In this document: piece by piece, positions 45,325 to 61,433 of the stretch
Numbering within the stretch: the stretch's first letter is position 1
How the letters are laid out: every line of letters begins with the position of its first letter
DNA from: an uncultured bacterium
Lineage (GTDB): Bacteria; Omnitrophota; Gorgyraeia; Zapsychrales; Aceulaceae
Assembly: GCA_937930175.1 (NCBI GenBank)
Contig: CALGLP010000004.1
Location: 2,163-66,162 of the forward strand
Direction of reading: 5' to 3'
DNA length: 64,000 nt
The notes under the pieces: model-generated
Database searches by the model: none
Seen by the model: only the letters and a program-made list of their open reading frames with translations
Told to the model about the DNA's origin: nothing
Made by a program: the position numbers and the translations under genes

Positions 45325-45396
45325 TTAAGCGTCTGAAACAAGCAATGTGCCGGGAGGCTTTAACAGCCTCCCGGCAAGGCTTGGAAAGCGGGGCCT

Positions 45397-45744
45397 ATGG
45401 CTTTCAAAGATAATTTAGCGCAAGATGCGGCAAAGATATTTTTAAACTCGGATGAGTTTGCCGAGGAAATTACCTACACGCCTAAAGGCGGCGCTGCGAA
45501 AGTTATTAAAGCGCTTGTGAACCGCAAGCGCATAGACCCTGCCTATGAGGATGCGGGCCGCGTCCTTTTAAACCAATTTGAGATATTTATTGCTAATGAC
45601 GAAACATCCGGCATCGCATCCATTAACAAAGGCGGGGATCTGGTTTCGCTTGCGGAGTTTATCGGCGGAGCTGCAATTGACTGGGTAGTGGCTGATATCT
45701 TAGGTCAAGACGAAGGGGTATGGCATTTGCTTTTGCAAAAATGA
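45397..45744 (+). CDS. Putative head completion/connector protein
   Basis: 115 aa after capsid gene. Confidence 0.3.
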   Translation: MAFKDNLAQDAAKIFLNSDEFAEEITYTPKGGAAKVIKALVNRKRIDPAYEDAGRVLLNQFEIFIANDETSGIASINKGGDLVSLAEFIGGAAIDWVVADILGQDEGVWHLLLQK

Positions 45745-46346
45745 GCGAACTAAGACTAGAGATTAATACAAAGAATTTAGAGCGGGCAATCAGGATTTTC
45801 CCTAAAGAGCTTAAATACGAAATTGCCGACGGGATGGATCATGCCACGAGGAAGTTCTTGAAAATCTTTAAACAAACCAGACTCCAGGGCCCGCCGGGAA
45901 TCAAAGGCAGGCCGCACGGGATATTTACTCATTTTCAAAGAGCAAGCTTTGTGTCGCAGGATATCGAGGGTATGGGTATGGTGATTTTCTCGGATTCGAA
46001 GATTGCCCGTATGCATGAGGAAGGCGCGATACTTAAGAATCCAGGCGGCGGGAAGCTTGCAGTGCCGCTTTCGGCAAGAAAAGAGCTTTTTACCTCTGAC
46101 GGCAGGCTTAAGAAGCAATACAAACAGCCCAGGCTGCTCAAGAATGTTATCCCTATCCAATTAAAAGGTAAAACATTCTTGGCCAAGGTTAAAAAGAAAC
46201 TGCGCGAGCTGATACCTATTTTTGTTTTAAAAAACAGCGTGCGCATACGCCCCCGACTTATGTTCTACAAAACCTGGGATGACATGCAGAATGAGCGGAT
46301 AGATATCTTAAACAAATCAATCGAAAAGGCGCTGAATAAAGTATGA
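45720..46346 (+). CDS. Putative virion morphogenesis / tail completion protein
   Basis: 208 aa. Confidence 0.3.
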   Translation: MAFAFAKMSELRLEINTKNLERAIRIFPKELKYEIADGMDHATRKFLKIFKQTRLQGPPGIKGRPHGIFTHFQRASFVSQDIEGMGMVIFSDSKIARMHEEGAILKNPGGGKLAVPLSARKELFTSDGRLKKQYKQPRLLKNVIPIQLKGKTFLAKVKKKLRELIPIFVLKNSVRIRPRLMFYKTWDDMQNERIDILNKSIEKALNKV

Positions 46347-46801
46347 CAGTCAGAGAAAGTATTTTGGAAAATTTAAAGATAACACTTGAGGCCATATCAA
46401 TTGCAAACGGCTATCACAATGACATTGCCAGCGTGCAAAGGTGGCGGCAGTCCGGCAATTCTCTTGTTTCAATTCCCTGCATTGTTATTAATGCCGGGCC
46501 CGAAGAAAAAGAGCCGGTGCCTAATCCTTTTACGACCTGTAAGCTTACCGTCTATCTCGATGTTTGGATGAGGCAGGCGCAGGATGATCCGCAGTCAACA
46601 GATACGCTCTTAAACAGTCTTTTAGGGGATATTGAAAAAGCGCTTATGGTTGACTACACGCGCGGAGGTTTTGCCAAGGATACAAATATTAAGTCCAATG
46701 TCCTTTTTGAAACTTTAGAAGGCCAGCCCCAGTCAGGCATAATCACAGAGCTTGAGATAATTTATCAGCACAAACAAAACGATCCCGAAGTGTCGGGATA
46801 G
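46343..46801 (+). CDS. Putative tail terminator (gpU-like)
   Basis: 152 aa directly before major tail gene. Confidence 0.35.
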   Translation: MTVRESILENLKITLEAISIANGYHNDIASVQRWRQSGNSLVSIPCIVINAGPEEKEPVPNPFTTCKLTVYLDVWMRQAQDDPQSTDTLLNSLLGDIEKALMVDYTRGGFAKDTNIKSNVLFETLEGQPQSGIITELEIIYQHKQNDPEVSG

Positions 46802-46814
46802 AGGAGGTTAAACC

Positions 46815-47957
46815 ATGCTTACGCGTAAAAGGCAGCTTGCTGCAAAGATAGAAGTGGCAGAAGGTGCTGCTGAAGCCTTGGCTGCGGCTGATGCCAGGCT
46901 TTTAGTCTACAACCCGAAGGTGAGTTTTGATATAGCTATGTTTGAACGCAACCCTGCGCGGCAGTCGTTCTCAAATATCGCCAAGCTTCCCGGCAAGCGG
47001 CCAGCAGGCCTGTCATATCGGCTGGAGTTAAGAGGCTCAGGCATTGCCGGTACCGTTCCTGAATGGGCGAAGATTTTACAAGCCTGCGGATTCGGAGTCA
47101 GCCAGCTTAAGTCAATGAATATAGGCGCAGTTACCAACGGGCCTTTTGAGCACGGAGAAACAATTACCGGAGGGACTTCCGGCGCAAAAGGCAGGGTGGT
47201 GGTTAATACTGCAAACGGCTCGCCGAATATTTACTTTGTATCTATCTCAGGGGCATTTGAGTCAGCCGAGACTATTACAGGCGGCACATCAGGTGCAACA
47301 GCAACTACTTCGTCTGCGCCGGTAACAGTGGGTAATGAGATTAAGCCTATCTCTGATAACATTCCCTCGCTTACCCAGGGCAGTTATGAAGACGGTGTGC
47401 GCAAGCTCTTAAAGGGCTGCCGGGGCAAGGTGAAGTTTAGTTTTAAGTCAGGCGAGCCGGTGCTTCTTGATTTTGATTTTCAGGGTGTAGAAGCGGGAGT
47501 GAGCGATTTATCTTTTCTTGCAGATGTCGCTTACGAGAATACAAAACCGCCGGTATTCTTAAGCGCGCTTTTCTCAGTGGATGCCTATTCGGCGAAGATA
47601 GGGGAGATGGATATCGATGTTGGTAATACCCTGGCGGTTCGCGATGACGTTAATGACCCAAGAGGGATTTTATCTTTTGCTGTCACGGGAAGGAGTGTTT
47701 CCGGCTCATTCAATCCGGAGATGGTTTCCTGCGCGGCGCACGATTTTCATTCCAAATGGTTTTCGGGAGCTGAGATGGTGATTGATTTTACTGTTGGCCA
47801 GACAGCCGGAAATAAGTTTAGGTTTTATGTGCCAAGGGCGCAGTATACCAAAGTCGACGATGAAGATAGAGACGGCCTGCAATTAGCCAAGAGCACTTTT
47901 GGTTTGAACGGATCGCTTTTATACGGCGATGACGAAGTATCAATCTTAGTATTTTAA
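46815..47957 (+). CDS. Major tail protein with C-terminal extension
   Basis: 380 aa; precedes the G/G-T chaperone pair. Confidence 0.45.
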   Translation: MLTRKRQLAAKIEVAEGAAEALAAADARLLVYNPKVSFDIAMFERNPARQSFSNIAKLPGKRPAGLSYRLELRGSGIAGTVPEWAKILQACGFGVSQLKSMNIGAVTNGPFEHGETITGGTSGAKGRVVVNTANGSPNIYFVSISGAFESAETITGGTSGATATTSSAPVTVGNEIKPISDNIPSLTQGSYEDGVRKLLKGCRGKVKFSFKSGEPVLLDFDFQGVEAGVSDLSFLADVAYENTKPPVFLSALFSVDAYSAKIGEMDIDVGNTLAVRDDVNDPRGILSFAVTGRSVSGSFNPEMVSCAAHDFHSKWFSGAEMVIDFTVGQTAGNKFRFYVPRAQYTKVDDEDRDGLQLAKSTFGLNGSLLYGDDEVSILVF

Positions 47958-47973
47958 CAAAAGGAGGAAAGCC

Positions 47974-48399
47974 ATGCTTACGGGAATTAATATTTACGAA
48001 ACCAAACCTTACAAGTCAAAACTGGATCTTGACAAAGATAACTCCACGGTTTTTCACGTCGGGCTTCTTGATTCTCATTCGAGGGCCTACATTGAGGATC
48101 AAACTACCTCTTTTGAATTCAGCTCCAAGAATCCGAAGGATCCGGCTAAGGCAAACATCAACGCCTCAAAGCGCAATCTCTTGGTGGTGAAGTTTGGGCT
48201 GAAAGGTTTCGACAACTTCCTGGATCCGCGCGACAGGAAGCCGCTCAAATTTGATACGGTCTCAACAGCTATAAACGGGAAGAATTATTCAGCAGTCGCA
48301 GATGAAATTATAGCGATGTTGCCTAAGGCTTTGATAGATGAGCTTTCGGAAGTGATTTTAGCCGAGAATTCTTTGAGCGAGGACGAAGAAAAAAACTAA
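47974..48399 (+). CDS. Tail assembly chaperone G
   Basis: 141 aa acidic protein ending EDEEKN before the tape measure. Confidence 0.55.
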   Translation: MLTGINIYETKPYKSKLDLDKDNSTVFHVGLLDSHSRAYIEDQTTSFEFSSKNPKDPAKANINASKRNLLVVKFGLKGFDNFLDPRDRKPLKFDTVSTAINGKNYSAVADEIIAMLPKALIDELSEVILAENSLSEDEEKN

Positions 48400-48707
48400 T
48401 CCTGGCGGTCGGGCTGCATAAGTTTAGGCTCGACTGCCAGGCGTGCTCAGACGCTTTAAAGGTAGAGCGCGGCTGCGAGGAAGATTCGCCGATTGAAGGC
48501 GTCTGGAAGTTAAAGGACTGGGAGTTTAGGCGGTGTCCAAGGAAACTTGTTGCTAGGGCGAGCATTGAATATTTGAACGCGTATCTTTTTTTCGAGAAAG
48601 GATATCTGCCTAATCCCGGCGGCTGGTTAGATCAGCCGCTTAAATTTATCCAGGCAATAAAGATAATTGAGCGCGAGATTGCCCTGGCAAAAGAGAAAGA
48701 GGATTAA
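47974..48707 (+). CDS. Tail assembly chaperone G-T, product of a -1 programmed frameshift at A_AAA_AAC (48390-48396)
   Basis: Slippery heptamer two codons before the G stop; -1 frame open from 48390 to TAA 48705 (..EEKKLILAVGLHKFRLD...AKEKED); its stop overlaps the tape measure ATG 48707. Confidence 0.55.
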
Positions 48708-50251
48708 TGCCTACAAACAGAGAACTCGAAATCATCATGAAATTAAAAGACGAGGTCTCAAAGCGCCTGCAGGGGATTGAAGGCAATCTGCAGAAGTTTG
48801 CTAATTCCTGCAAGCAGCTTGGCGATACGCTGCGTAACGTAGGCAGAGAGATTGCCCAGGTCGGCCAGAACCTTGTTTTTATGGGCGGCGCATTGACCGG
48901 GCCTCTTGCTCTTGCCTTTAAGTCTGCAGAGAAATATTCCCTTTCCGTCTCAAATGAACTAAAACGCCTTGATAATGCCTTTATCGGGCTTCGTGTAAGC
49001 ATTGCCGAGGCATTAGTGCCGGTTGCGCATAAATTGGCCAATGTCTTTGGCAATCTGCTTAATCTCTGGAATAGCCTGACCCCCACAACGCAGCAGATGA
49101 TTGTGCAGACTATTGCCGTCACCGGTATTTTTATGACACTCGGCGGTGTAGTAGTTGCCTTGATAGGGCGCTTGATACGATTAGGCGGGCTCATTATTGA
49201 TTTAGTCGGCAAGCTTGCCCTGTTTGCCTTAGCGCATCCCTGGATTGCCGGGATCGCTATCGCCGTGTCTATTCTTATCGTTGTTTTCCTTAAATTCAGA
49301 GATGTGGCAGTGCCGGTCCTTAACGTAGTTGAGATCGGCGCGCAGATGGTCTACATCGGCTTTGTAAAACTTATTAAGTATCTCTTGGTGGGTTTTGACA
49401 AATTAGCCCTTGGTTTAGAAAAGTTCTATGAGGTCTTAGGCAAACTTCCCGGCAAACTCGGCGAGCCTTACAGGGAAGCTTCAGAGCATATCAAACGTTT
49501 CCGCGATAACCTGCAGGGCTTAATTAAAGCCTCTGACGCGGAGATGGACCGGGTAGGCAATAAGATTTCAAATATATTAGTTACCGGAGAGGGCAGCCTC
49601 GTTAAAGGATATGACAAAGCAAAGAACGCGATAAATAGTTTTATCGATGCCCTTAAGAATTTAGGCAAGGATATCAAGATTGAAGAGGTTGCGCAGAAGT
49701 TTGACGCAATTCAGTCTATGGGAGAAGGCGTTGCCCGGTCGCTGGGGAGCGTATTCAAACACTTCTTTAGTGATGTTTTTAAAGGCCAAATGGATGATGC
49801 CAAAGATTATTTTGCAGAGTTTGGCAACATGATGCTGGAAGTCTTGGCTGAGGTTTTGGCCAAGATGATTCTTGTTAAGACCATTGGTTCTATTTTTCCG
49901 GGCATGATCCCCTTCTTCCACCAAGGCGGCATGATATATCACTCTGGCGGCCAGATTTTACCTGTAAGAGCGCATGCGGGCCTTGCGCCTGATGAGGTGC
50001 CGATTGTTGCGCAGACCGGGGAGGGGGTTTTATCCAGGCGCGGAATGCGCGCATTAGGCGGGCCGGATAGTTTGAAATCCTTAAATGAAGGAAAACCCGC
50101 CAAAGCAGGCATAACCATAAATGTTAACCAGGTCATCCAGGCTTGGGATGCGCAGGATGTCTGGCGTAACCGCAAGATGCTTTCCAATGCGATTGCAGAC
50201 GACATTTATAACAACGGCAAGATCCGTTCGGTAATCAGGAGTTACACATGA
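48707..50251 (+). CDS. Tail tape measure protein
   Basis: 514 aa; coiled coil and hydrophobic helices. Confidence 0.7.
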   Translation: MPTNRELEIIMKLKDEVSKRLQGIEGNLQKFANSCKQLGDTLRNVGREIAQVGQNLVFMGGALTGPLALAFKSAEKYSLSVSNELKRLDNAFIGLRVSIAEALVPVAHKLANVFGNLLNLWNSLTPTTQQMIVQTIAVTGIFMTLGGVVVALIGRLIRLGGLIIDLVGKLALFALAHPWIAGIAIAVSILIVVFLKFRDVAVPVLNVVEIGAQMVYIGFVKLIKYLLVGFDKLALGLEKFYEVLGKLPGKLGEPYREASEHIKRFRDNLQGLIKASDAEMDRVGNKISNILVTGEGSLVKGYDKAKNAINSFIDALKNLGKDIKIEEVAQKFDAIQSMGEGVARSLGSVFKHFFSDVFKGQMDDAKDYFAEFGNMMLEVLAEVLAKMILVKTIGSIFPGMIPFFHQGGMIYHSGGQILPVRAHAGLAPDEVPIVAQTGEGVLSRRGMRALGGPDSLKSLNEGKPAKAGITINVNQVIQAWDAQDVWRNRKMLSNAIADDIYNNGKIRSVIRSYT

Positions 50252-50586
50252 GCGATTTCACGTATTTGCCGGATTTTCTCATTGATGAGGCACTTGAATA
50301 TAAGACGATTGTTTCGGAGTTTGAAAACGGAGCAGAACAGAGGCGCCGTAAATGGGCAAACCCTCAGCGCAAATGGACGCTTAGGTTTAATAATAGGACT
50401 CATACAGAAATGACGGAGGTTTCAGACTTCTTTAAGAGCAAGTTTGGAGCATTCATGGCGTTTACCTGGACAAACCCGAATGATTTGGTTGAATACACCG
50501 TGCGTTTTGTTGAGGACAGCTTTCAGTTTAGCCGCAAGGCATACGGCGTGTATGATTTTGAATTTGAATTTATCGAGGTGAAATAA
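50248..50586 (+). CDS. Minor tail protein M-like
   Basis: 112 aa; lambda M size and position. Confidence 0.5.
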   Translation: MSDFTYLPDFLIDEALEYKTIVSEFENGAEQRRRKWANPQRKWTLRFNNRTHTEMTEVSDFFKSKFGAFMAFTWTNPNDLVEYTVRFVEDSFQFSRKAYGVYDFEFEFIEVK

Positions 50587-51197
50587 TGCCGCGAGAGACA
50601 GACAGCACATTTAAGCAAGAGAAAGCCAAGCGCCAGAATTCACCGATATTTTTGTATACGCTTGAAAAATATGACGGCGTAAATGACCTGCGCTTAGCGA
50701 GTTTTGACGAGGATGTAATTTATAACGGCGTTACTTATTCGCGGTTTCCTATAACCCATGAGTTTGTCGGCGAGAATAATCAAGGCCAGATTGACCAGGT
50801 TAAGGTGCGGCTTGCCAATGTCTCAAGGCTGATCCAGCTCTACTTAGAGCAATTTGATTTTAGGGGCAGGAAGGTAACTATTCGTATGGTCTGGCTGGAT
50901 CAGTTATCTGATCCGGATGCCTTTATGGATGATATTTTCTACATCGACAGTTATACGGCAGATCAAAATAACGTGGAGTTTACTCTGACAGGAAAGTTCG
51001 ATGTTCTCGGGGTAGATCTTCCGGCAAGGCGCTACTCGCGGAATTACTGCAGTTGGAAGTTTAAGTCGCCAGAGTGCGGATATTCAGGAGCTGAGCTTAC
51101 ATGCAACAAGACAAAACAGAGATGCAAACAGCTGGACAACTATCAGAGATTCGGGGCGTTTCCGTCGGTACCGGCAAGGCGCATCTACGTGATGTAG
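50586..51197 (+). CDS. Minor tail protein L-like with C-terminal cysteine cluster
   Basis: 203 aa; C-terminus CSWKFKSPECGYSGAELTCNKTKQRCKQ resembles the gpL Fe-S ligands. Confidence 0.55.
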   Translation: MPRETDSTFKQEKAKRQNSPIFLYTLEKYDGVNDLRLASFDEDVIYNGVTYSRFPITHEFVGENNQGQIDQVKVRLANVSRLIQLYLEQFDFRGRKVTIRMVWLDQLSDPDAFMDDIFYIDSYTADQNNVEFTLTGKFDVLGVDLPARRYSRNYCSWKFKSPECGYSGAELTCNKTKQRCKQLDNYQRFGAFPSVPARRIYVM

Positions 51198-51601
51198 AGC
51201 AATATATCATCGACAAGTATCTTGGGTTGCCGTATCGGCACAGGGGCCGGTCTTTAGAGGGGCTTGACTGCTGGGGTTTCCTAAAGTTTGTCTATGCTGA
51301 CTTAGGCGTGAGGCTGTTTGATATTGAAGAACTGGAATACAGCAAAATCTGGGGAGCGGAGGGAAAGGATTATTTTAAAGAGCATTACTTCCATGACTGG
51401 GCAAGCGTTAAGGCGCCCGAGATGCTTGACGGAGTACTGTTTGTTAATTCAAGAAGAATTGCCAATCACGCAGGAATAATCTTAAGCAGCGGAAGATTTA
51501 TTCATTGCGCAAGGCCGGGCGTGATTATCTCAAGGATAAATGATCTCTCCTGGCAGGCAAGGATAGAGGGATTTTACAGGTTAAAAGACAAGATATGCTG
51601 A
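51101..51601 (+). CDS. Tail assembly protein K-like, NlpC/P60 domain
   Basis: DCWGF (Cys) and NHAGI (His) of the NlpC/P60 fold; true start likely downstream of 51101. Confidence 0.55.
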   Translation: MQQDKTEMQTAGQLSEIRGVSVGTGKAHLRDVEQYIIDKYLGLPYRHRGRSLEGLDCWGFLKFVYADLGVRLFDIEELEYSKIWGAEGKDYFKEHYFHDWASVKAPEMLDGVLFVNSRRIANHAGIILSSGRFIHCARPGVIISRINDLSWQARIEGFYRLKDKIC

Positions 51602-54600
51602 CTATAAGGAACATAGACAATCCGTTTAAACTGGAAGAGGCTCAGGTTAAGGAGGTCCCTTACTCCCGTCATAAGACGCTTCAGGAAGTTTTAATTGAGT
51701 CCGGGTTTGATTACGAGAATAAGCGCATTATTGTCAGCGGCAAGCGCATCGAGAATTTATCAGCATATCTTGATAATGAAGACGAGGTTACTATTATCCC
51801 GGAAGTAAAAGCGCCGGTGGTTGCGATTATCTCTGCCATAGTATCGGCAGTATGGGCCGTGGCAGTGGCGCATCCGTTCTTATTTACTTTTTTCGTGCTC
51901 TCCATGGGTTATGCCATTTATCAGCATATGAACCAGCCTAAGATGCCGGATTTTAATTTAGGCTCGGCAACCGGCATGGATGAGGGGTCGCCTACCTACG
52001 GCTGGGATGGCGTGCAGACTATCCAGGAAGTAGGAGTGCCGGTGGCAGTTGTTTACGGAGAACACAGGATCGGCGGGAATATTATCAATCAATTCCTTTG
52101 GGAGGATGGAGATAGCCATTACTTAAATGTTCTGCTTGCGCTTTGCGAAGGAGAGATTGAGTCAATCGAGAGCATTGAAATAAATAACAATCCTATTGCT
52201 AACTTCGGAGGAGTGACGGTTTCAAAACGATACGGCGCAAACTTTCAGAGTCTTGTCAGCAACTTCGAAGACCTGCACAATCTTTATCCGGTTAATGCCA
52301 ATCTGGTTAAAAACAACCCTTATGTTTACACTACCGTGGATTTAGATGTGGAAGGGTTTGAGATTCACTTAAGGCTGAATAACGGGCTTTACCAGCAGAG
52401 CCAAGGATCCGGCGATATCCAAAGTTGGAGCGTAACTTACAAGGTTGAATACAAGCTCCATTCAGAAGGCACTTATATTAATTTAGGCGAGACGACCATT
52501 TCGGAAAAATCCCGCTCCACAGTGCGCAGGGTGTTTCGCAAAGTCGGTTTAGGGCCCGGGCAATACGATATCCGGATCACCCGCACCTCAGATGACAGTT
52601 CGCTTTCACCGCTTCGGCAGGGTGATTTAACCTTATTTCAGATAGATGAGCTTAAGACTGATGATCTAAGTTATCCAAACACAGCTTTATTGGGCCTGCA
52701 GCTTTTGGCCACAGACCAGCTTAACGGCGGAACCCCGAATGTTACAGCAGTTGTAAAGGGCAAGAAAGTTTTAGTGCCGGACATAAGAAACACCGGTGTG
52801 GCGGTTAGCTGGGAAGATTATTATTGGGATGGAGGCGACTATCGTCTTTTATGTGACGATACTTTGCTTGAATGGGACGGCATAACCTATGTCCAGAAAT
52901 TCTCAGCCAATCCGGTATGGTGCCTCAGGGATTTCATTGTCAACAATCGTTATGGGCTGGGCGAGTTTATTTTAACCTCGCATCTGGATAACGCCTCGCT
53001 ATTGGAAATGTCGCAGTATTGCGAAGAGAAAGTGGCTGACGGAAAAGGCGGCTTTGAGAAACGTTTCAGGCTCGATGTCGTGATTGACTCAAATAACAAG
53101 GCGCTCGATATTCTGATTCAGCTAAGTGCTGTGTTTAACGCTATGCCATTATACAGTGCAGGCGGGATATCGTTCAAAATAGATAAGCAAACGCTGCCGA
53201 CTCAGCTTTTCGGCATGGGAAATATCGTTAAAGATAGCTTTGTGCAGAGTTGGAAGACAATCAAAGAAGTGCCGAATGTGATTGAAGTGCAGTTTACAGA
53301 TAAAGAGAAAAATTACCGCCAGGAAACCATTGCTTACATCGATGAGGATGCATTGGCTAACGGCGAGCCGATGCGCAAGAGCCAGCTTCGCTTATTTACC
53401 ACTGGCGCAAGCTATGCTATCCGCGCAGCGCGCTATGCCTTAAAGGTTGCCAAATATATTAACCGCTCAATTGTTTTTAAGGCAGGCATTGACGCAGTTG
53501 CCTGCCAGGCGGGAGATATTATTTCTCTTTCGCATGATGTGCCGCAGTGGGGATTTTCGGGCAGGGTAAAGGACGACTCCACAACGATATTAATTAAGCT
53601 GGACCGGCCTATGATTATTGAAGACGGCAAGTCTTATAAGATACAAATCAGATTCTCTGATGATTCGATTGAGGAAAAATTAATAACCTCGCCAGCCGGG
53701 ACCTATACAGAAATCGCCTGCCAGGCATTCACAAATACGCCGCAGGATTTTGATGTCTATGCCATAGGCGAAACGAATAAGGTCAAAAAAGACTTTAGAG
53801 TTGTAGCGATTCAAAGAGAAGGCAAGAACGAGGTGCAGATTCAGGCCCTGGAATATAACGAAGCGGTTTATGACGATTCTGATATTATCCTGCCGCAGAA
53901 TAACTACTCTTCTTTATCAGGAGAAATTCCGCCCGTATCAAATCTTACGTTAACCGAATCCCTGGTTAAGAAGACTGACGGCACAATTGAAAACGCGATT
54001 GATGTTTGGTTTGACCGGCCGGTGTATGTCGACCACTATGTCAAGTCCTTTGCCAAGGCAAAAATATATTTAAGCGATGACGGCGGCTTAAGCTGGGGTG
54101 CAAGAGGCGAAACAACCGGCTCATATTTCCGCATTATCGGCGATATTGTTGACCGGCACACCTATAAGGTTAAAGTCACATCGCTTACAGATATGGATGA
54201 GGAAAGCTCTCTTGTGACAGCGCCTGAATCCTCAATTACTGTTGTGGGCAAATCTGCCCCGCCAAGCGATGTTTCGACTTTCTTGGTTAACCAGAACAGG
54301 GATCAAATTTATTTCGGCTGGAGCGAGATCCCGGATGTGGACGTTTGGGGATACGAAATCAGGCGCGGAGTAGACTGGGAAAGCGGAGAGGTAATAACAT
54401 TTCAGCAGGGAACACACTATCTTACTACGGGTCTTAAGAAAGGCATTGATCAGAAATTTTGGATCAAGGCAATTGATACTTCCGGTAACTATTCTGAAAA
54501 CCCTACAGAATCAGTCCTTACTGTAGGTGAGATCCCGTTTAGGAACGTAATTGCTGAATATCAGGAGCATCCATTATGGGAAGGCGTAAAGACAAATCTT

Positions 54601-55215
54601 GAGGTCAGTTTTGAGACGCTGGTAATTTCCGACGGATTCCTTTCCGGAGAATATGATACGCCTGTCCGGGATATCGGCTATGTGGCAGCTGCCTTTATTG
54701 AGATAGAGGCAATCGTTTCTCTGTCAACAGGCAGAAGGTTTAACAGCGACCCGGACGCACGGTTTAACGACAGCCTGTCTTACCGGTTTACCGGCCAAGA
54801 GACGCAGAATGTGGCCAATTTTAAGATACGGTTGTCCGAAGACAATATCAACTGGTCCGAGTGGGCAGATTATCAGCCGGGGGATTATTATTGTCGGTAC
54901 TTTCAGCTTAAGATGATTTTAACGCGCGCAAACCTGGGTGACTATGTGACGTGCTCAACCCTGCAATATCTTGCAGACCTTCCTGATGTGGATGATTTCG
55001 GAAGCGATGCAGTAGCGGACGCAAACGAGGGGAAAGAGGTATTTTTTACCAAAACTTATCACGAGGAGCCGAATGTGCATATTGAGATAACTTCCGGAGG
55101 AGGCGTTTATACGCAGTTTGTTGATAAGTCTACGACGAGTTTTAAGGTCAAGTTATTCAATGCTCAAGGTGCCGCGCAGACAGGTACTTTTGACTGGCAT
55201 AGCCATGGAGTTTAA
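51595..55215 (+). CDS. Host specificity / tail tip protein J-like
   Basis: 1206 aa; position after K. Confidence 0.7.
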   Translation: MLTIRNIDNPFKLEEAQVKEVPYSRHKTLQEVLIESGFDYENKRIIVSGKRIENLSAYLDNEDEVTIIPEVKAPVVAIISAIVSAVWAVAVAHPFLFTFFVLSMGYAIYQHMNQPKMPDFNLGSATGMDEGSPTYGWDGVQTIQEVGVPVAVVYGEHRIGGNIINQFLWEDGDSHYLNVLLALCEGEIESIESIEINNNPIANFGGVTVSKRYGANFQSLVSNFEDLHNLYPVNANLVKNNPYVYTTVDLDVEGFEIHLRLNNGLYQQSQGSGDIQSWSVTYKVEYKLHSEGTYINLGETTISEKSRSTVRRVFRKVGLGPGQYDIRITRTSDDSSLSPLRQGDLTLFQIDELKTDDLSYPNTALLGLQLLATDQLNGGTPNVTAVVKGKKVLVPDIRNTGVAVSWEDYYWDGGDYRLLCDDTLLEWDGITYVQKFSANPVWCLRDFIVNNRYGLGEFILTSHLDNASLLEMSQYCEEKVADGKGGFEKRFRLDVVIDSNNKALDILIQLSAVFNAMPLYSAGGISFKIDKQTLPTQLFGMGNIVKDSFVQSWKTIKEVPNVIEVQFTDKEKNYRQETIAYIDEDALANGEPMRKSQLRLFTTGASYAIRAARYALKVAKYINRSIVFKAGIDAVACQAGDIISLSHDVPQWGFSGRVKDDSTTILIKLDRPMIIEDGKSYKIQIRFSDDSIEEKLITSPAGTYTEIACQAFTNTPQDFDVYAIGETNKVKKDFRVVAIQREGKNEVQIQALEYNEAVYDDSDIILPQNNYSSLSGEIPPVSNLTLTESLVKKTDGTIENAIDVWFDRPVYVDHYVKSFAKAKIYLSDDGGLSWGARGETTGSYFRIIGDIVDRHTYKVKVTSLTDMDEESSLVTAPESSITVVGKSAPPSDVSTFLVNQNRDQIYFGWSEIPDVDVWGYEIRRGVDWESGEVITFQQGTHYLTTGLKKGIDQKFWIKAIDTSGNYSENPTESVLTVGEIPFRNVIAEYQEHPLWEGVKTNLEVSFETLVISDGFLSGEYDTPVRDIGYVAAAFIEIEAIVSLSTGRRFNSDPDARFNDSLSYRFTGQETQNVANFKIRLSEDNINWSEWADYQPGDYYCRYFQLKMILTRANLGDYVTCSTLQYLADLPDVDDFGSDAVADANEGKEVFFTKTYHEEPNVHIEITSGGGVYTQFVDKSTTSFKVKLFNAQGAAQTGTFDWHSHGV

Positions 55216-55217
55216 GA

Positions 55218-55433
55218 ATGGGTAAGAAACTGATACCGAGTAAAGTGATTATCGAGTTTGATAACGGCGCTTTTGTAAGCGGCGTTATTCTTTATAAAGT
55301 AAATGACAGCGGTGAAATAAGCCGGGTAAAAACAATCGGGATTAAGAATGCTGATTTCAGCAAACCGCTACTTAACGGGCTGCTACAAAAGTTTATTAAG
55401 CATGCGGAAAGCGCGGAAGGAACTCAAGAATGA
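55218..55433 (+). CDS. Hypothetical phage protein
   Basis: 71 aa. Confidence 0.3.
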   Translation: MGKKLIPSKVIIEFDNGAFVSGVILYKVNDSGEISRVKTIGIKNADFSKPLLNGLLQKFIKHAESAEGTQE

Positions 55434-55708
55434 TTTGCTCAAGATGCAAGCAAGAGATCCCCAAAGACATGGCCTATGTGCTGATAAGGGGAAGCATTAT
55501 TTTGCGTACTCCCAAAAAGCGGCCTTTAGTCTTTACCTGCATTGAGCAGGCATTTAATTACGCGCAAGCCTTATTTATGCACGATGTCTGCTGGATTGAG
55601 ACTTTGCGGGAGTACGGGTTAGAGCTTTATGACATGAATAAGGTCGCAGAACAATATAAGAATATGGAGGTGTCCGATGGCTTGGGACAAGACAAAGCCG
55701 GAAAATGA
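55430..55708 (+). CDS. Hypothetical Cys-containing phage protein
   Basis: 92 aa. Confidence 0.3.
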   Translation: MICSRCKQEIPKDMAYVLIRGSIILRTPKKRPLVFTCIEQAFNYAQALFMHDVCWIETLREYGLELYDMNKVAEQYKNMEVSDGLGQDKAGK

Positions 55709-56249
55709 CATGCTTTTAATTAACTTCCCGGCTGCCTGCAGGGCAAACTGGGAAGCCTTAGAGTTAGGCACGGACCCGAATCTTTTAATTACGAATGCCA
55801 AGGTAGCGCCCGGGGCCGGAATTGAAGACACAAAGCTGGCACAGATAGTCACGCCGAATAAGGTGAGCGGCGCAGCTTTGACCGGCCTGGCAAGCATACC
55901 TTCTGCAGCCGGGGTCCTGCCGGAGGCGAATTCTCCTAATAAGCTGAAAGCCGATGTCAGTGATACAACGCCGGAGTATTTAGACGGGCTTATCGATACT
56001 TTGGTGTTTCAGATTTCAGGAAGCGATAAGCTGCAGCTAAAAGACGGCGGAGTCGGCACTGAAAAGCTGGAAGGAGGCGCAGCTTCTCCGGGGAATAACA
56101 AATGTTACGGAACCAATGCAGGCGGTGCCAAGGGGTTTTATGAGACTATCCCTGTTCACCTTGATTCAGTTCAAGACGGCCAGGGATTAAGATATAGCAG
56201 CGCCAATTCAAGGTTTGAGAACGCGCCGCCCAGAGCGGTATACGCATAA
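55677..56249 (+). CDS. Putative tail fibre protein (proximal part)
   Basis: 190 aa Gly/Ala/Ser-rich with fibre-like low-complexity segments, downstream of J. Confidence 0.4.
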   Translation: MAWDKTKPENDMLLINFPAACRANWEALELGTDPNLLITNAKVAPGAGIEDTKLAQIVTPNKVSGAALTGLASIPSAAGVLPEANSPNKLKADVSDTTPEYLDGLIDTLVFQISGSDKLQLKDGGVGTEKLEGGAASPGNNKCYGTNAGGAKGFYETIPVHLDSVQDGQGLRYSSANSRFENAPPRAVYA

Positions 56250-56258
56250 AGGAAACAC

Positions 56259-56834
56259 ATGGGAAATTATACAAGCGGGCCCCCGAAAAGCTCCGGAGGA
56301 AATCCAGTACCTACAACATGGACGGACGATCCATTAGTTCAGGATGTTACGCCTATTAAAAAGACGCACATTGTAGAGCTACGGGCTTGTTTAGAAGCCT
56401 TAGACGGCCATTATCATGTATTCAATGGGAACAATTCAAACGCGGAAGTGCCGGATGTATCTGTGGCATGGGCAGAATCAAATGCGCAGCTTATTGTGGA
56501 TGAAACGCCGCCGAAGGCATCGCATACTAATGAGGTTATAAATTTTATCAAGGCCTTTAATGGTCACTACCATTATGTGCCAGCATACAGCATTAATTCC
56601 AACGCCTTTGCGCCCGGTTTTGCTTTTGAGGACGACCCGGTTACAGCGCTTGTTACATGGATCAAGGCATCGGCTCACGAACAATTAAGAAGCCATTTAG
56701 AAAGCTTGGCAGGGCATACGCATATAGTCTGCTGTGAATGCGAATGCACCTGCACTTGTACCTGCACGTGTACTTGTACCTGCACCTGCACCTGCCAGGA
56801 GCAGTGCTGCAGCGAATGCGATTGCGGAGATTAA
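56259..56834 (+). CDS. Putative tail-fibre tip / RiPP-precursor-like protein with three G-H-x-H motifs and a C-terminal Cys-rich (Cys-Thr)n tail
   Basis: 191 aa; LDGHYHVF, FNGHYHYV, LAGHTHIV; C-terminus CCECE(CT)8-9CQEQCCSECDCGD; stop one base before the radical SAM start. Confidence 0.5.
   Translation: MGNYTSGPPKSSGGNPVPTTWTDDPLVQDVTPIKKTHIVELRACLEALDGHYHVFNGNNSNAEVPDVSVAWAESNAQLIVDETPPKASHTNEVINFIKAFNGHYHYVPAYSINSNAFAPGFAFEDDPVTALVTWIKASAHEQLRSHLESLAGHTHIVCCECECTCTCTCTCTCTCTCTCQEQCCSECDCGD
56745..56795 (+). repeat. Hexanucleotide (TGYACN) tandem repeat encoding the (Cys-Thr)n run
   Basis: tgcacc tgcact tgtacc tgcacg tgtact tgtacc tgcacc tgcacc tgc. Confidence 0.85.
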
Positions 56835-56835
56835 A

Positions 56836-58122
56836 ATGAAGCCAAAATCTGCCTATATTTTTGTGACTAATAAATGCAACCTGCGCTGTAAATATTGCTA
56901 TGAAGAAAACCGCACCGGAGATATGACACCGGAAACTATGGTTGCGGCCATAGACTGGCTGGTAAGCCATTATGAAAAAGAAATGTTTGCCCGGCCTTTT
57001 GAAAGCCTGACCTTTACATTCTTTGGCGGAGAACCGCTTCTTAATTTTCCGACAGTCAGGGCTGGTATAGATTACCTGCGGGGCATATGCGATAAGCTTA
57101 ATTTTAAGGCAGGAATCCACATTTTATCAAACGGGACGGTATTTACAGATGAGATGACAGAGTATTTTAAGAACATTCGTCAATACAATAATTTCAACTG
57201 GCACTTTCAGGTGTCATTGGACGGCTGCGAGGAAACGCACAACGCTAACAGGGTATTTGCCAATGATGAGGGAAGCTATAAGGTTATTTCAGAAAACATA
57301 AAAAAGATCAGGGAAATTTTCAAAAGCGTAGGCGTGCGCATGACCGTTACGCCGGAGAATATAAAATCACTTTCAAAAGATTTTGAGGCTTTGCTTTCTT
57401 TTGGCACGCCTGTGACTAACCTTACGCCTATTGTAGAAGGCGACTGGAATGATGAGGTGATCGGCACATTCATAGATGAGCTTAAAAAATGCATTGAGCT
57501 GTATTACCGAAAAGGCCATAACCAGTATTTTAATTATCTGCACCATTCTTTGGAGAGGATAGTGGACAATTCATTTAACCGGCAGAAGGGCTGCAGGGCA
57601 GGGGAATTCTTGATAGGTATTTCAACTGAGGGCAAGATCTATCCTTGCCACAGATTTGTCGCCTATTCTAAGAAAGATGACTTTTGCCTGGGCGATGTCT
57701 GGAAAGGTATAGACGAAAACGGCGAGGCGTTTAAGAAAATAAAAGAAATGCGTCAGAGGGCAGTTAAGTGTTTAAACTGCAAGGTGTTTTCCTGTAACAG
57801 GTGTTTTGCAACAAATATGTACTTGAATCAGGATCCCGCGGCGATTCCCGACAACGGGTACTGCGAAATGAACGAAAAGATATCAAGCGCCTTGCGGCCG
57901 ATAATAAGGAGGTTGTTTGTGGAAGGAAAATTACCGCTTAAAGAAGGCGAAATGGCAGATCTAAAAGATAATGGTGTTATGTATAAGATAAGTAAAGACG
58001 AGCCTGCGGAGCTTGTAGAGGACAAGTTAGATGTAATGGCCCGCTGTATGATCCGCGTGGTGAAAGAACTGCAAGAGGTAAAGTCAGCGCTGTCTTTGCT
58101 TGCATCGAGGCATAAGGATTAA
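56836..58122 (+). CDS. Radical SAM enzyme with C-terminal SPASM domain
   Basis: CNLRCKYC (Cx3Cx2C) near the N-terminus; C-terminal cysteines including CLNCKVFSCNRC; real start ATG 56836 (the listed ORF from 56734 is alternate-frame read-through of the CT repeat). Confidence 0.8.
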   Translation: MKPKSAYIFVTNKCNLRCKYCYEENRTGDMTPETMVAAIDWLVSHYEKEMFARPFESLTFTFFGGEPLLNFPTVRAGIDYLRGICDKLNFKAGIHILSNGTVFTDEMTEYFKNIRQYNNFNWHFQVSLDGCEETHNANRVFANDEGSYKVISENIKKIREIFKSVGVRMTVTPENIKSLSKDFEALLSFGTPVTNLTPIVEGDWNDEVIGTFIDELKKCIELYYRKGHNQYFNYLHHSLERIVDNSFNRQKGCRAGEFLIGISTEGKIYPCHRFVAYSKKDDFCLGDVWKGIDENGEAFKKIKEMRQRAVKCLNCKVFSCNRCFATNMYLNQDPAAIPDNGYCEMNEKISSALRPIIRRLFVEGKLPLKEGEMADLKDNGVMYKISKDEPAELVEDKLDVMARCMIRVVKELQEVKSALSLLASRHKD

Positions 58123-58125
58123 GCT

Positions 58126-59478
58126 ATGAAGTATTTATGCATCGTTCCATATGAATATACCACTATAACGATGATGTACCGGAATTCTCCGGTCGGCATC
58201 TATAAGGTTGCCACAAAACTGCGCAGAGAAGGCCATACTGTAGAGCTTTTTAACATGTACCCTCTTTACCGCCCGAGAAAGTTTATGGAGAATAAGCCGG
58301 GCGCGATGTATTTCAAGGGCATACCTGTATCTCAATTTATCGGTTATAAGAAGTGCGGTAATTTCGAGAACGAGAAATTATGCAGGGAGTTTCACAGGCT
58401 GGGACTGCCAATATCAGAACTTACGAAAAAGTTAGAGGAGTTTCAGCCTGACAGGATATTTGTTGGCAATACCTTTACTTTTCTCTGGAGGGCAGTTTAT
58501 GAGATCGTAGCCGAATGCAAAAAGACGATGCCTAAGGTTCCGGTAAAGGTCGGCGGGCTATATGCTATTCTTTGTCCGGATCATGCTGCAGCATCGGGTG
58601 CCGACGAAGTCATGACCCTGGAAGAAAAGACTACGAGCGATAACTTTATCAAAATAGATACGGATTTATTCGGTGATAACCTTCCAGAGAGGATATTTTT
58701 AGGGACCTCGGTAGGCTGCCCCAATCATTGCTCATATTGCGCTGTTCATATTGTAGAGGGCTGCACAAAGGTAAACACCAGCCCGGATGAAGTAGTAAGC
58801 GAGCTTAAGTATTATAAATCAATGGGAATAAGCAGGTTTATTTTTCTCGACGCCAATATCCTCTATGGATACGAGAATCATTTTAAAGTTATTCTCGATA
58901 AGGTTATCCAGGAAAACTTAAATATAGAGCTTTATTCCTACGGAGGAGTAGAGGCGCGCCTATTGACCGATGATATTGCAGAAAAGATGGTTAGTGCCGG
59001 GTTTCGTTCGGTGAATATTCCTATTGAGAGCGCAAGCGACATTATTATTAAAGAATGGAAGAGGAATTGCTTTGTTGCCGACTGGGAACAGGCGATGAAT
59101 GTTGCTAAGAGGCATTTTCAGCGTCTGCGTTCTTTCCTGATTATCGGCGCGCCGAATCAGACCGCAGAAGATATTAAGTCAACCATTGACCTGATTAAAA
59201 GCTACGGTGCAGAGGCGGTAACTCTGCCGTATACGCCGATTCCAGGTACTCCTGATTACGAGAAGTATAAGCATATCGATTTGGAGGACCTTAACCCGGC
59301 CTTTTATCCCTGCGCGCATGAGCGGATGAAAGCAGCTGATTTAGAAAAGTTTTACTCTGAAAACCGGAATGTCAGGTTTTGCTTAAGAGATTGGGATGAT
59401 GCTCAACAGAAAATACCGCCGCCCACAAAGACGATATTTGAAAGCGGACCGGCAGTAAAAACTAAAGGAGGGGATTAG
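58126..59478 (+). CDS. B12-binding-domain radical SAM enzyme
   Basis: N-terminal Rossmann-like B12-binding region followed by CPNHCSYC (Cx3Cx2C). Confidence 0.65.
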   Translation: MKYLCIVPYEYTTITMMYRNSPVGIYKVATKLRREGHTVELFNMYPLYRPRKFMENKPGAMYFKGIPVSQFIGYKKCGNFENEKLCREFHRLGLPISELTKKLEEFQPDRIFVGNTFTFLWRAVYEIVAECKKTMPKVPVKVGGLYAILCPDHAAASGADEVMTLEEKTTSDNFIKIDTDLFGDNLPERIFLGTSVGCPNHCSYCAVHIVEGCTKVNTSPDEVVSELKYYKSMGISRFIFLDANILYGYENHFKVILDKVIQENLNIELYSYGGVEARLLTDDIAEKMVSAGFRSVNIPIESASDIIIKEWKRNCFVADWEQAMNVAKRHFQRLRSFLIIGAPNQTAEDIKSTIDLIKSYGAEAVTLPYTPIPGTPDYEKYKHIDLEDLNPAFYPCAHERMKAADLEKFYSENRNVRFCLRDWDDAQQKIPPPTKTIFESGPAVKTKGGD

Positions 59479-59480
59479 CT

Positions 59481-59771
59481 ATGGGAAAGGTCATCAATCA
59501 CGAGGAGATAATTGTTGACGATATTGTAAAGAGCTTAACACCGTCGGTTTACGACCCGGGCAGCGGTGTGCCAGCCTCTTTTGCGCTTATTCACGCGGAA
59601 GGCGGGCCGATGAGATATTTCGTTAACGGGCAAAATCCTGCGCCGTCGTCCGGGGCACTTTTAGAGGATGGAGATATTGTAGAGCTTCCGTCAATTTATC
59701 ACATAAAGGATTTTAGGGTGGTTAAATCCGGGGATGATTCAGGAAAAATTACAGTAACTTATGAAGCATAA
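59481..59771 (+). CDS. Hypothetical small protein adjacent to the radical SAM pair
   Basis: 96 aa. Confidence 0.3.
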   Translation: MGKVINHEEIIVDDIVKSLTPSVYDPGSGVPASFALIHAEGGPMRYFVNGQNPAPSSGALLEDGDIVELPSIYHIKDFRVVKSGDDSGKITVTYEA

Positions 59772-59785
59772 AGGAGGCGTTAAGA

Positions 59786-60340
59786 ATGCAGCTGCATCTT
59801 AAACATCGCAAAGCAAGCAGAATAATTAAGCGGGTTACAGAAATAACTACAGATGGCGGGCTTCCAAAGACAGGCCAGACTATGATTTATCAGCCTGGAG
59901 ATGACGGGTCCTATCAGATGGGGTATCCGATAGGCGGCGTTCAAAGGTTTATTGACAACGGCGACGGAACAATAATCGATATGGCGACAGGCCTTATGTG
60001 GATAAAAGATCCTCAGGCAGCAGGTTTAAGGTCCTCTATGTATTGGTATGACGCAATCAATGCCTGCGAGAATTTGGATTATGCAGGCCACGATGATTGG
60101 CGGATGCCGAACATTAACGAGCTCTTGTCAATTGTGGATCATTCAAGGTATGATCCGGCATTCGATCTGATGTATTTTATACCATTCCCGGATACATGGA
60201 CGCCTAATTGGTCGTCAACCGTTTGTGCGCCTTGGCTGGACGGGGCCTGGTGTATGTATCCGTATGATGGTTACAAAACAGTCTGGAGCAGAATTAGTGA
60301 TATGTGTTTTGTGCGGCCTGTCAGAGGCGGTCAATCTTAA
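59786..60340 (+). CDS. DUF1566 (Lcl C-terminal-like) domain protein, probable fibre or adhesin domain
   Basis: DWRMPNINELLSIV matches the DUF1566 signature WRLPTxxEL. Confidence 0.5.
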   Translation: MQLHLKHRKASRIIKRVTEITTDGGLPKTGQTMIYQPGDDGSYQMGYPIGGVQRFIDNGDGTIIDMATGLMWIKDPQAAGLRSSMYWYDAINACENLDYAGHDDWRMPNINELLSIVDHSRYDPAFDLMYFIPFPDTWTPNWSSTVCAPWLDGAWCMYPYDGYKTVWSRISDMCFVRPVRGGQS

Positions 60341-60354
60341 AAGGGGAGGCGAAA

Positions 60355-60537
60355 ATGGCAAAAGCTACAATTGAATATAAAAATGGAAAGAAAATCGTTA
60401 CCTATCCTAACGGCGAAAAGCAGGAACATTCCAAAGAAAGCCTTAAAACCGCGAAAGATATGTTTTTGCGGCATAGGCAGAAGATAGATGAGAATATCGC
60501 ATCAATCGATGACGATCTTGCAAAAATGACGGTGTAG
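60355..60537 (+). CDS. Hypothetical phage protein
   Basis: 60 aa from ATG 60355. Confidence 0.3.
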   Translation: MAKATIEYKNGKKIVTYPNGEKQEHSKESLKTAKDMFLRHRQKIDENIASIDDDLAKMTV

Positions 60538-60541
60538 TCAT

Positions 60542-60826
60542 ATGCATAATAATGGTAGCTGGACAAAATATATCACACCGGTTTTAGTGACGATTGCTAT
60601 TTTCATGCTCGGCACGATTATGGCACAGGTAAGCCGCATCGATGAGAAACTCTTTCAGCATTTGGCGAATGACCAGATACATATGCCGCGCAGTCAGTAT
60701 GTTTCAAAGGCAGAATTTGATCTGCACTGCAAATTCTTTGAAAAAGAAAACGAGCGGATCTTGAAGGCAATAGACGATTTAAGGAATGATTTAAAGGTAA
60801 GAAGCCGGGATGGAAGAAATAAGTAG
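60542..60826 (+). CDS. Single-TM membrane protein (holin-like candidate)
   Basis: 94 aa; one TM helix. Confidence 0.3.
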   Translation: MHNNGSWTKYITPVLVTIAIFMLGTIMAQVSRIDEKLFQHLANDQIHMPRSQYVSKAEFDLHCKFFEKENERILKAIDDLRNDLKVRSRDGRNK

Positions 60827-61016
60827 AGTAAGGATTGAGTTTGACCTGCATGAGTATCGGCGGCTTGCCTTGGTTATCCGGGATCACAAAAGTCTGCTCT
60901 ATAAATTAAAAATGAACGAGCTGATCAAACAGGGCCTTATAAAAGACATGAACATTATTATAGGCATATTGGAAAGAGCCGAGGTTAAACCACAAAAGGG
61001 GGAGGTGGAAACATGA
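60810..61016 (+). CDS. Hypothetical phage protein
   Basis: 68 aa. Confidence 0.25.
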   Translation: MEEISRVRIEFDLHEYRRLALVIRDHKSLLYKLKMNELIKQGLIKDMNIIIGILERAEVKPQKGEVET

Positions 61017-61124
61017 AGATGTTTATAGCTTTTACTTTGGGGAATATAGTCGGAGGCCTGGGAATGTTTTTTTATCTTTGGCTGAAAGGCAAGGTGCAGA
61101 GTGTCGGAAAGCGAAAAATTTAGT
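61014..61124 (+). CDS. 36-aa TM peptide MKMFIAFTLGNIVGGLGMFFYLWLKGKVQSVGKRKI
   Basis: Single hydrophobic helix plus basic tail. Confidence 0.25.
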
Positions 61125-61433
61125 CTGCTTAAATTTGCCGGGAGTTTTTTTCAATTCCTGCCGTGGGTGAAGACGCTGCGTTATGCAGCCGGTATTGCGC
61201 TTGTCGGTTTTATCGGCCTGACAATTTACAGGGCATTCTTTATGCCGACGCAGACCACCAAACAGGTCACGCATATCATCGCCCAGCCTGGAGCACAGGT
61301 AACGGTGGATCAGAAGAAAGAGGAAAGGAAGCCCGGCCTTGAGGTTAGTCCTTTCGTAGAAGGCTATGGGTTCGTGGAATCCGACGAGCGCAAGGGCGCA
61401 GGCGCCAAGGCCGGGGTTAGGATTGACTTTTAA
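61101..61433 (+). CDS. Membrane protein (spanin-like or holin-like candidate)
   Basis: 110 aa; one TM helix. Confidence 0.3.
   Translation: MSESEKFSLLKFAGSFFQFLPWVKTLRYAAGIALVGFIGLTIYRAFFMPTQTTKQVTHIIAQPGAQVTVDQKKEERKPGLEVSPFVEGYGFVESDERKGAGAKAGVRIDF

Follow-up and report, generated by a model that had tools for sequence, protein, structure and literature searches.

We analysed a 64,000-nucleotide stretch of DNA from an uncultured Omnitrophota bacterium (GenBank assembly GCA_937930175.1, contig CALGLP010000004.1, positions 2,163 to 66,162 of the forward strand; hereafter the window), and found three adjacent genes in the tail operon of its prophage. They encode a 191-residue protein ending in a cysteine-rich tail, a radical S-adenosylmethionine (SAM) enzyme with a SPASM domain, and a B12-type radical SAM enzyme. 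We lean towards the reading that the 191-residue protein is tail-associated, and that its cysteine tail would be stapled by thioether bonds, and probably methylated, by the two neighbouring enzymes before assembly. Judging from sequence comparison, the cysteine tail is quite probably the substrate of the two enzymes, and the indications for the presence of the protein in the virion are evenly balanced. With less than even confidence, we tentatively propose that phages of anaerobes install a thioether ladder and methyl groups in a virion tail-tip protein, using enzymes of the type that mature peptides that are ribosomally synthesized and modified post-translationally (RiPPs).

The cysteine-rich tail and the two neighbouring enzymes

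The 191-residue protein is encoded on the forward strand at 56259-56834. Based on AlphaFold2, the alignment of its internal repeats and the alignment of homologues, it divides into a folded domain (residues 1-157, 56259..56729) and a cysteine-rich C-terminal tail (residues 158-191 with the stop codon, 56730..56834), the latter being the proposed substrate region. The stop codon lies at 56832-56834, and after a 1-base gap the SPASM enzyme starts with the ATG at 56836 (428 residues, 56836..58122, forward strand). The gene for the B12-type enzyme (450 residues, 58126..59478, forward strand) begins 3 bases past the SPASM stop codon. Both enzymes were identified by family and structure matches, the SPASM enzyme also by alignment. 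From the central tail fibre gene J onward, the genes are co-directional and nearly abutting, and no convincing terminator was found between J and the cassette. The 191-residue protein and the two enzyme genes form a translationally coupled unit within the late tail operon. The initial annotation, made from the letters alone, had described an open reading frame (ORF) with three helix-G-H-x-H motifs and a Cys-Thr repeat tail, followed one base after its stop codon by a SPASM gene and directly next by a B12 radical SAM gene; the ORF reads as claimed, and the coordinates and family matches agree.

The C-terminus of the 191-residue protein reads C158-C159-E-C-E-C163-(T-C)8-QEQCCSECDCGD, or CCECEC(TC)8QEQCCSECDCGD for the tail in full (34 residues, 16 cysteines), with a CX3D-COOH motif at the very C-terminus (C187-D-C-G-D191, nt 56817-56831). 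We rejected a DNA microsatellite artefact as the origin of the repeat, and regard the repeat as a selected protein feature, because its codons vary synonymously (TGC/TGT; ACC/ACT/ACG) and 52 homologues, with identities of 31-82%, keep the CxCxC pattern in their protein sequence. The tails of these 52 homologues comprise 17-41 residues with 6-17 cysteines (median 13), or about 40% cysteine. The residue X in CXC is T in 52%, E in 21%, Q in 10% and D in 6% of cases (89% T/E/Q/D). CX3D-COOH ends 19 of the 52 tails, including that of the window protein, and C[DEY]xx[MI]-COOH ends another 12. The thioether acceptor is Thr for CteB and Asp or Glu for QhpD. For PapB, the documented acceptors are Asp and Glu (PMC12373016).

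The copy number of the (TGY ACN) repeat (56763-56798 of the window) varies between close relatives, with (TC)8 or (TC)6 (L020, L024), and three IMG/VR contigs (L012, L014, L023) break within 4 bases of the stop codon of the 191-residue homologue. These contig ends suggest assembly breaks or strain polymorphism at the repeat. The SPASM frame is also open upstream through the cysteine repeat (ORF 56734-58122, 462 residues from a GTG). A frameshift fusion of substrate and enzyme was considered and rejected; the open frame arises from the composition of the repeat and is not shared by relatives, and both gene callers and relatives use the SPASM start at ATG 56836.

At 40% cysteine with CXC motifs, the tail resembles metallothioneins, and the adjacent invariant HxH motifs hint at metal binding. 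It could be an unmodified metal-binding tail, metallothionein-like or carrying an Fe-S cluster, with the two enzymes acting on another tail protein, a lipid or a sugar. The residues between the cysteines, 89% of them T/E/Q/D, would serve better as acceptors than as metal ligands, and the gene linkage described below also argues against this alternative, which we consider very improbable.

The enzyme that would carry out the thioether stapling we favour, the SPASM enzyme, has a conserved CX3CX2C motif (C14, C18 and C21; residues 14-21, nt 56875-56898) and matches the radical SAM family PF04055 with an E value of 5e-14. Its seven SPASM cysteines (C253, C271, C312, C315, C320, C323 and C343; nt 57592-57864) are conserved in the phage clade and in PapB, with a spacing of CX2CX4CX2C against the canonical CX2CX5CX3C. 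Both marks of the superfamily of radical SAM/SPASM peptide-modifying enzymes, the CX3CX2C motif and the seven-cysteine SPASM region, are present. The best curated match is the PapB ranthipeptide maturase NF047865 (211 bits, cut-off 340; named PapB proteins are about 30% identical), followed by the nif11-leader type maturase (146 bits, below cut-off), the CXXX-repeat maturase TIGR04115 (145 against 350), QhpD TIGR03906 (129 against 453), the SCIFF maturase TIGR03974 (127 against 425) and HxsB (96 bits, below cut-off). Neither a SCIFF peptide nor a CXXX repeat nor a qhp gene was found in the window. Among solved structures, CteB (5WGG, E 1e-24) comes closest, with the alignment beginning at its residue 98. 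A QueE-type role in DNA modification had been named as a possible refutation of the substrate reading; the PapB score of 211 bits and the CteB match stand against an E value of only 1.6e-4 for the QueE-like phrog_2076, and the best matches of the SPASM enzyme are peptide maturases that form thioethers, not QueE-type enzymes.

The phage clade begins at the radical SAM core and has no N-terminal RiPP recognition element (RRE) for leader recognition; PapB is about 100 residues longer at the N-terminus. In turn, the clade has its own C-terminal extension of about 75 residues (residues ~350-428). It comprises about 30 clusters, which share contigs with the 191-residue family. Two loci from related phages (L003:10589-12880 and L005:2197-4488) have a SPASM gene interrupted by an intein of about 335 residues with a LAGLIDADG homing endonuclease, immediately before the third cysteine of CX3CX2C (N-extein ...CNLRCDY, C-extein CYESLREG...). 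Inteins occupy such motif sites in indispensable genes. Related SPASM genes in isolated phages (Campylobacter CP220/CP21, Erwinia phages, Phass-1) are below 30% identity, and the neighbourhood of the gene in Phass-1 is uninformative.

The B12-type enzyme has its CX3CX2C motif at C198/C202/C205 (nt 58717-58740) and matches PF04055 with an E value of 8e-21. The B12-binding domain PF02310 scores 23.6 bits in the window copy, under the Pfam gathering cut-off of 32.1; a 95% identical protein (P0306) is recorded with PF02310 under the NCBI name 'B12-binding domain-containing radical SAM protein'. Among NCBIfam models, PhpK scores best (92 bits, cut-off 600), and the enzyme belongs to no curated family. 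Its nearest solved structure is MgmA/QCMT (9CCB, E 3e-10), of which only the radical SAM core aligns. MgmA C-methylates a glutamine of the folded protein McrA (PMC11796369), and B12 radical SAM enzymes also carry out non-methylation chemistry, including thioether formation (PMC12931638). The clade comprises about 24 clusters. Its best cellular relative is one half of P0322, a 783-residue radical SAM fusion with 35% identity. P0322 lies in a His-Xaa-Ser-like cluster with five radical SAM genes on an archaeal-looking contig (L032:7595-16224, GCA_964640195.1), together with an HxsD-domain protein and the HTHSHISHTSHGSHSSHGSHSS peptide, which has 87 residues and ends in NHTHSHISHTSHGSHSSHGSHSSGGGGGGGGC.

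Homologous loci, including those of distant homologues with 35-45% identity, keep the three genes together. Both enzymes lie within about 4 kb of the 191-residue gene in every locus with enough flanking DNA. In a phmmer survey of the fetched loci, the SPASM enzyme was found in all of at least 17 non-redundant loci with enough flank, and the B12 enzyme in all loci that extend further. At least five unrelated phages, of sipho and myo type, carry these trio loci in a tail or baseplate module. On a 133-kb contig (L001), V, PAAR, gp25, gp6-like and P2_I baseplate genes precede the target, SPASM and B12 enzyme genes, with two more radical SAM genes and then large fibre-like proteins further along. 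In L003 and L005, a Baseplate_J gene and a Collar-domain protein, respectively, lie upstream, and the SPASM and B12 enzymes followed by F5/8-type-C proteins lie downstream. In L006, a 1430-residue protein and a collagen-like protein precede the target, and L011, an Omnitrophota metagenome-assembled genome, has a module of tube, DUF2460, BR0599 and J-like genes. A 114-kb viral contig with Baseplate_J (L025) carries the order SPASM, target, B12. Because the gene order differs there, the linkage of the trio is functional and not merely inherited. By gene content, the loci show the three-gene unit in the tail operon to be obligate. The substrate-then-maturase reading of the initial annotation holds up in this co-occurrence. 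It had also named common occurrence outside phage tail modules as a refutation; we found the trio only inside tail or baseplate modules.

This strict, order-independent adjacency to a SPASM enzyme of the peptide-maturase type across divergent phages argues further against an unmodified metal-binding tail. Like the substrate family, the SPASM and B12 clades are small and isolated, and enzyme and substrate clades match in size and share contigs. Paralogues with different cysteine tails have their own SPASM enzymes. On the other side, some loci (L001, L006) add an aldo-keto reductase, a glycosyltransferase and a methyltransferase, which would fit enzymes that act on other targets.

Fibre-like genes flank the cassette on both sides. 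Neighbouring fibre genes are unrelated between loci while the trio is constant, which also speaks against a non-virion assembly factor or a cofactor precursor. A small protein encoded after a fibre gene often acts as a fibre chaperone, and SPASM enzymes also make peptide-derived cofactors; the 191-residue protein could act as chaperone of the fibre next to it, or as the source of a peptide-derived redox cofactor (as pyrroloquinoline quinone or mycofactocin). There are no cofactor-pathway genes nearby, and a chaperone role leaves the invariant, enzyme-serviced cysteine tail unexplained. We give this explanation little credence.

No peptidase, protease, exporter or immunity gene was found in any phage locus fetched, which weighs on the alternative of a phage-borne RiPP. 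In that case, the 157-residue domain would be an oversized leader or scaffold, and the cysteine tail a core that is cross-linked, cleaved and released at lysis, acting as a bacteriocin-like or signalling molecule and not as a part of the virion. The cassette does have the classic precursor-then-maturase order, every one of the nearest SPASM families matures RiPPs (the nif11-leader type, at 146 bits, among them), long leader domains occur in proteusin and Nif11 systems, and morons are frequent after tail fibre genes. Against it, the cysteine tail starts 2 residues past the last invariant HxH of the folded domain, with no linker, double-Gly site or leader-cleavage motif between, and the SPASM enzyme is without an RRE. 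The putative leader domain ends fibre-like proteins elsewhere, and structural genes lie on both sides of the cassette in the myovirus loci. We therefore regard a released phage RiPP as unlikely, and stay with a tail-associated protein that would be stapled.

The folded domain and its wider family

An internal repeat alignment of the 191-residue protein revealed three beta-alpha (strand-helix) repeats of about 45 residues each (residues 15-58, 63-110 and 113-157). Each repeat closes with G-H-x-H after a helix, giving the histidine pairs H51/H53, H103/H105 and H153/H155 (nt 56409-56417, 56565-56573 and 56715-56723, forward strand). In the alignment of 38 family members, the six HxH histidines are invariant, as are W21, R42, R144, C159, E162, C163, C165 and C167. 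The layout of HxH-closed repeats plus cysteine tail recurs in at least 50 homologues. The AlphaFold2 model, made with the family alignment, has a block of residues 1-160 with a predicted local distance difference test (pLDDT) score of 87-98 (mean 87.6, predicted template modelling score 0.79). The cysteine tail is modelled at low confidence (pLDDT ~44-52). The domain is confidently modelled as a compact pseudo-threefold beta-alpha repeat domain, and a disordered tail comes directly after it.

We found nothing above threshold for the 191-residue protein in scans against Pfam, NCBIfam, PHROGs and PADLOC. Foldseek searches with the model gave no match with E < 1 in the PDB and a best E value of 0.23 in BFVD, and the family profile found no credible match among PDB sequences. 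YmaF (PF12788) gives sub-threshold matches near the first HxH in 18 of the 38 family members (best E 3.9e-5); the window protein scores 14.7 bits, below the gathering cut-off of 27, and is not a member. The likeness to a T4-type fibre tip proposed at the outset did not survive the model, in which the HxH motifs lie in a single-chain three-repeat beta-alpha domain and not in a trimeric beta-helix, with no match to a fibre fold. Of the domain content expected for the three proteins, the radical SAM/SPASM part was borne out by profile searches; the fibre domain was not, the 191-residue protein matching neither a fibre-domain family nor any other. The suggestion that the protein is undescribed is in line with our searches, in which no existing family and no paper covered it. 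The open-access literature, as far as our searches went, has no account of a phage tail protein modified by a radical SAM enzyme, and such an absence is not proof.

An exhaustive profile search over 1.84 billion representatives, read in tiers at E < 1e-30 and E <= 1e-3, placed the domain in a wider family. The core family consists of 16 representatives (E < 1e-30). At E <= 1e-3, 1,368 proteins carry a repeat of about 35 residues, 'sWTD..i..g.T.IKa.HI.ELR.AI', usually 2-3 times at the C-terminal end of long proteins that also have fn3, Ig-like or leucine-rich repeat (LRR) domains. One such protein (P0181, 664 residues) is encoded directly upstream of a BhlA holin in a prophage. The slot before the holin is the usual place of a prophage's last tail fibre or receptor-binding gene. 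Another repeat-ending protein matches PHROG virion or tail-fibre families. No Pfam family matched the repeat in ten such proteins scanned (from the hit list P0175-P0305). The repeat appears, from these sequences, to be an undescribed and widespread surface or fibre-end domain, and the 191-residue protein looks like a free-standing fibre-end domain that gained HxH motifs and a cysteine tail.

Paralogous cassettes occur in several loci, within phage baseplate modules. L003:5136-9275 carries a 255-residue three-repeat paralogue without HxH and with a different cysteine-rich tail, followed by three radical SAM genes. A second paralogue (P0189, L030:3221-6750) is flanked by three radical SAM genes, and a third (P0173, L033:6070-11981) belongs to the baseplate module of a myovirus and has six radical SAM genes in its vicinity. 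An example of a paralogue tail, from a three-repeat 'WTD..ELR' protein, is QCLCDCHSHCCDCDGHCSCNCNGHCNCEGHWEW. As judged from these sequences, the theme of a three-repeat domain with a cysteine tail and radical SAM genes is broader than the HxH/CT family. Two HxH-less paralogue cassettes are without a B12 enzyme. We considered that the B12 enzyme tracks the HxH motifs and dropped the idea; the HxH-bearing paralogue in L033 is also without it.

Proposed maturation and prophage setting

We propose the following maturation pathway. The SPASM enzyme would dock on the folded domain, perhaps via its clade-specific C-terminal extension, and join the cysteines of the tail through ranthionine-type thioether links to carbons in the side chains of the interspersed Thr, Glu, Gln and Asp; one such link would close a CX3D ring, as in PapB products, at the very C-terminus. 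Methyl groups or, less likely, another C-S bond would come from the B12 radical SAM enzyme. The six invariant histidines may form a metal site on the pseudo-threefold axis. HxH metal sites are known from trimeric phage fibres (T4 gp37 and gp12), and the six-histidine coordination suggested here is by analogy with them. The stapled protein, redox- and protease-insensitive, would be fixed to the far end of the tail or a fibre, and the thioethers may serve where disulfides cannot, in virions released into reducing, anoxic habitats.

Several points weigh against this proposal. The evidence for incorporation into the virion is gene position and domain homology, and the region downstream of tail fibres is a known site of non-structural 'moron' genes. 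A tblastn search of the 191-residue protein against 50,697 sequenced phage records gave no match, and the protein matches no PHROG structural family and no fibre fold. Some non-phage surface proteins that carry LRR or subtilase domains contain the wider repeat domain too. In addition, the SPASM enzyme scores under every curated family cut-off, and the CXC spacing of the tail is far tighter than in any characterised ranthipeptide ring.

If the proposal is true, a structural protein of a virus would for the first time be seen to carry covalent cross-links, other than disulfides, that enzymes install, and radical SAM/RiPP chemistry would reach beyond small secreted peptides to a folded structural protein of a virus. 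Such stapling would offer a route to covalent virion stability without disulfides in sulfidic, reducing habitats. Substrate recognition would be independent of an RRE, and the dense natural CXC substrate would matter for peptide-stapling biocatalysis. As a new tail-tip module, widespread in uncultured phages, the cassette would be mobile and would move between the tail modules of siphoviruses and myoviruses; its paralogues would carry 2-6 radical SAM genes. The trio genes are short and directly co-expressible.

The prophage is a lambda-like siphovirus covering about 32.1-61.4 kb of the window (32083..61414, forward strand). Its left side is marked by a tRNA-Gln gene (32083-32156) and a large serine recombinase (32094-33833, reverse strand), and its right end was placed where the nucleotide identity of 86% to the prophage of Candidatus Velamenicoccus archaeovorus LiM stops. 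This Omnitrophota bacterium, with a complete genome, is the closest genome to the window. The tail half of the prophage (46260-61414) is 86% identical at the nucleotide level to the LiM prophage (L027, NZ_CP019384.1 1900649-1921221); the match ends at 61414, and the flanks are unlike, which points to a related Omnitrophota genome or to another site of insertion. Ca. Velamenicoccus archaeovorus LiM is an ultramicrobacterial predator of archaea, and the LiM prophage goes unmentioned in the papers found on Ca. Velamenicoccus. We found no direct repeat of an att site, as expected for a serine recombinase. Beyond the right end, a strong promoter-like site precedes host genes for TetR and TolC-like proteins.

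After the recombinase, the prophage has the order terminase gpA, lambda-family portal, tube, tape measure, tail L, K (NlpC/P60) and J. The J gene encodes the central tail fibre or tip protein (1206 residues, 51595..55215, forward strand; phrog_31, E 6.4e-150). It is followed on the same strand by two ORFs of 71 residues (55218-55433) and 92 residues (55430-55708), which are kept only in close relatives and have no family match. Directly upstream of the 191-residue protein, a 190-residue protein (55677..56249, forward strand) occupies a slot that, by analogy of position, is filled by collagen-like or Collar-domain fibre proteins in other phages (L005, L006). It had been labelled fibre-like, a label with no family or phage-record match behind it: Pfam, NCBIfam, PHROGs and a tblastn search of the same 50,697 phage records gave nothing. 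Downstream of the trio lie a 96-residue protein (59481..59771, forward strand) and a protein with an Lcl_C (DUF1566) domain (59786..60340, forward strand; PF07603, E 2.9e-25). The 96-residue protein, which is outside the conserved trio, accompanies the Lcl_C gene in related Omnitrophota prophages and has no tblastn match in the phage records. The Lcl_C protein is likely, from its domain, a fibre or adhesin component. The phrog_31 and PF07603 matches uphold the earlier placement of the cassette in the tail region, downstream of J and near a DUF1566 gene.

Elsewhere in the window, the early region of the prophage encodes a sigma-70-like protein (34762-35334) and a ParB-N-terminal domain fused to an N6/N4 DNA methylase (36806-38113). 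The host part contains a cluster of three tRNA genes (Cys-GCA, Leu-TAA and Val-GAC; 13363-14273), and the GC content is low (0.29) at 4-5 kb and 7-8 kb.

Comparison with known systems

The trio has its closest parallels in PapB/PapA (freyrasin) and CteB/CteA (SCIFF, thermocellin), which likewise pair a SPASM enzyme, with CX3CX2C and seven auxiliary-cluster cysteines, with a cysteine-rich substrate. Moreover, many tails in the family end in the CX3D motif of PapB. In contrast to PapB and CteB, the phage enzyme has no RRE, has a C-terminal extension of its own, and scores below the cut-offs. PapA and CteA are short leader-core peptides, whereas the substrate proposed here is a tail on a 157-residue folded domain; the spacing in PapA is that of CX3D repeats, whereas it is mainly CXC here, with one CX3D at the C-terminal end. 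The context also differs, being a phage tail module without a protease or exporter gene.

QhpD, a SPASM enzyme, forms several Cys-to-Asp/Glu thioethers in QhpC, the gamma subunit of quinohemoprotein amine dehydrogenase, which remains in the larger assembly. A SPASM enzyme acting on a protein that is retained in an assembly is what we predict here. However, there are no qhpA/B/G neighbours in our case, and the substrate fold and the biology are different. For the B12-type enzyme, the closest solved relative is MgmA/QCMT (9CCB), and its known target McrA is a folded protein; it differs in that only the radical SAM core of the phage enzyme aligns, with no curated family membership.

The T4 gp37 needle and gp12 share with the 191-residue protein three HxH motifs related by threefold symmetry, or pseudo-threefold symmetry here, in a phage tail gene product. 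They differ from it in that all HxH motifs lie here in one chain and after alpha-helices, and there is no sequence or fold match. The His-Xaa-Ser (Hxs) system is related through P0322, the relative of the B12 enzyme that lies in such a cluster, and through the 96-bit match of HxsB to the SPASM enzyme. The window has neither HxsD nor HxS repeats, the scores are below the cut-offs, and Hxs is itself uncharacterised.

Taken together, the comparison suggests that the trio works like ranthipeptide or QhpD-type maturation. It is not a member of the PapB, SCIFF, CXXX-repeat, QhpD or Hxs families, because the scores fall short of the cut-offs and both the RRE and the cognate partners are lacking. The enzyme classes are known, and what is new is the type of substrate and the biological setting.

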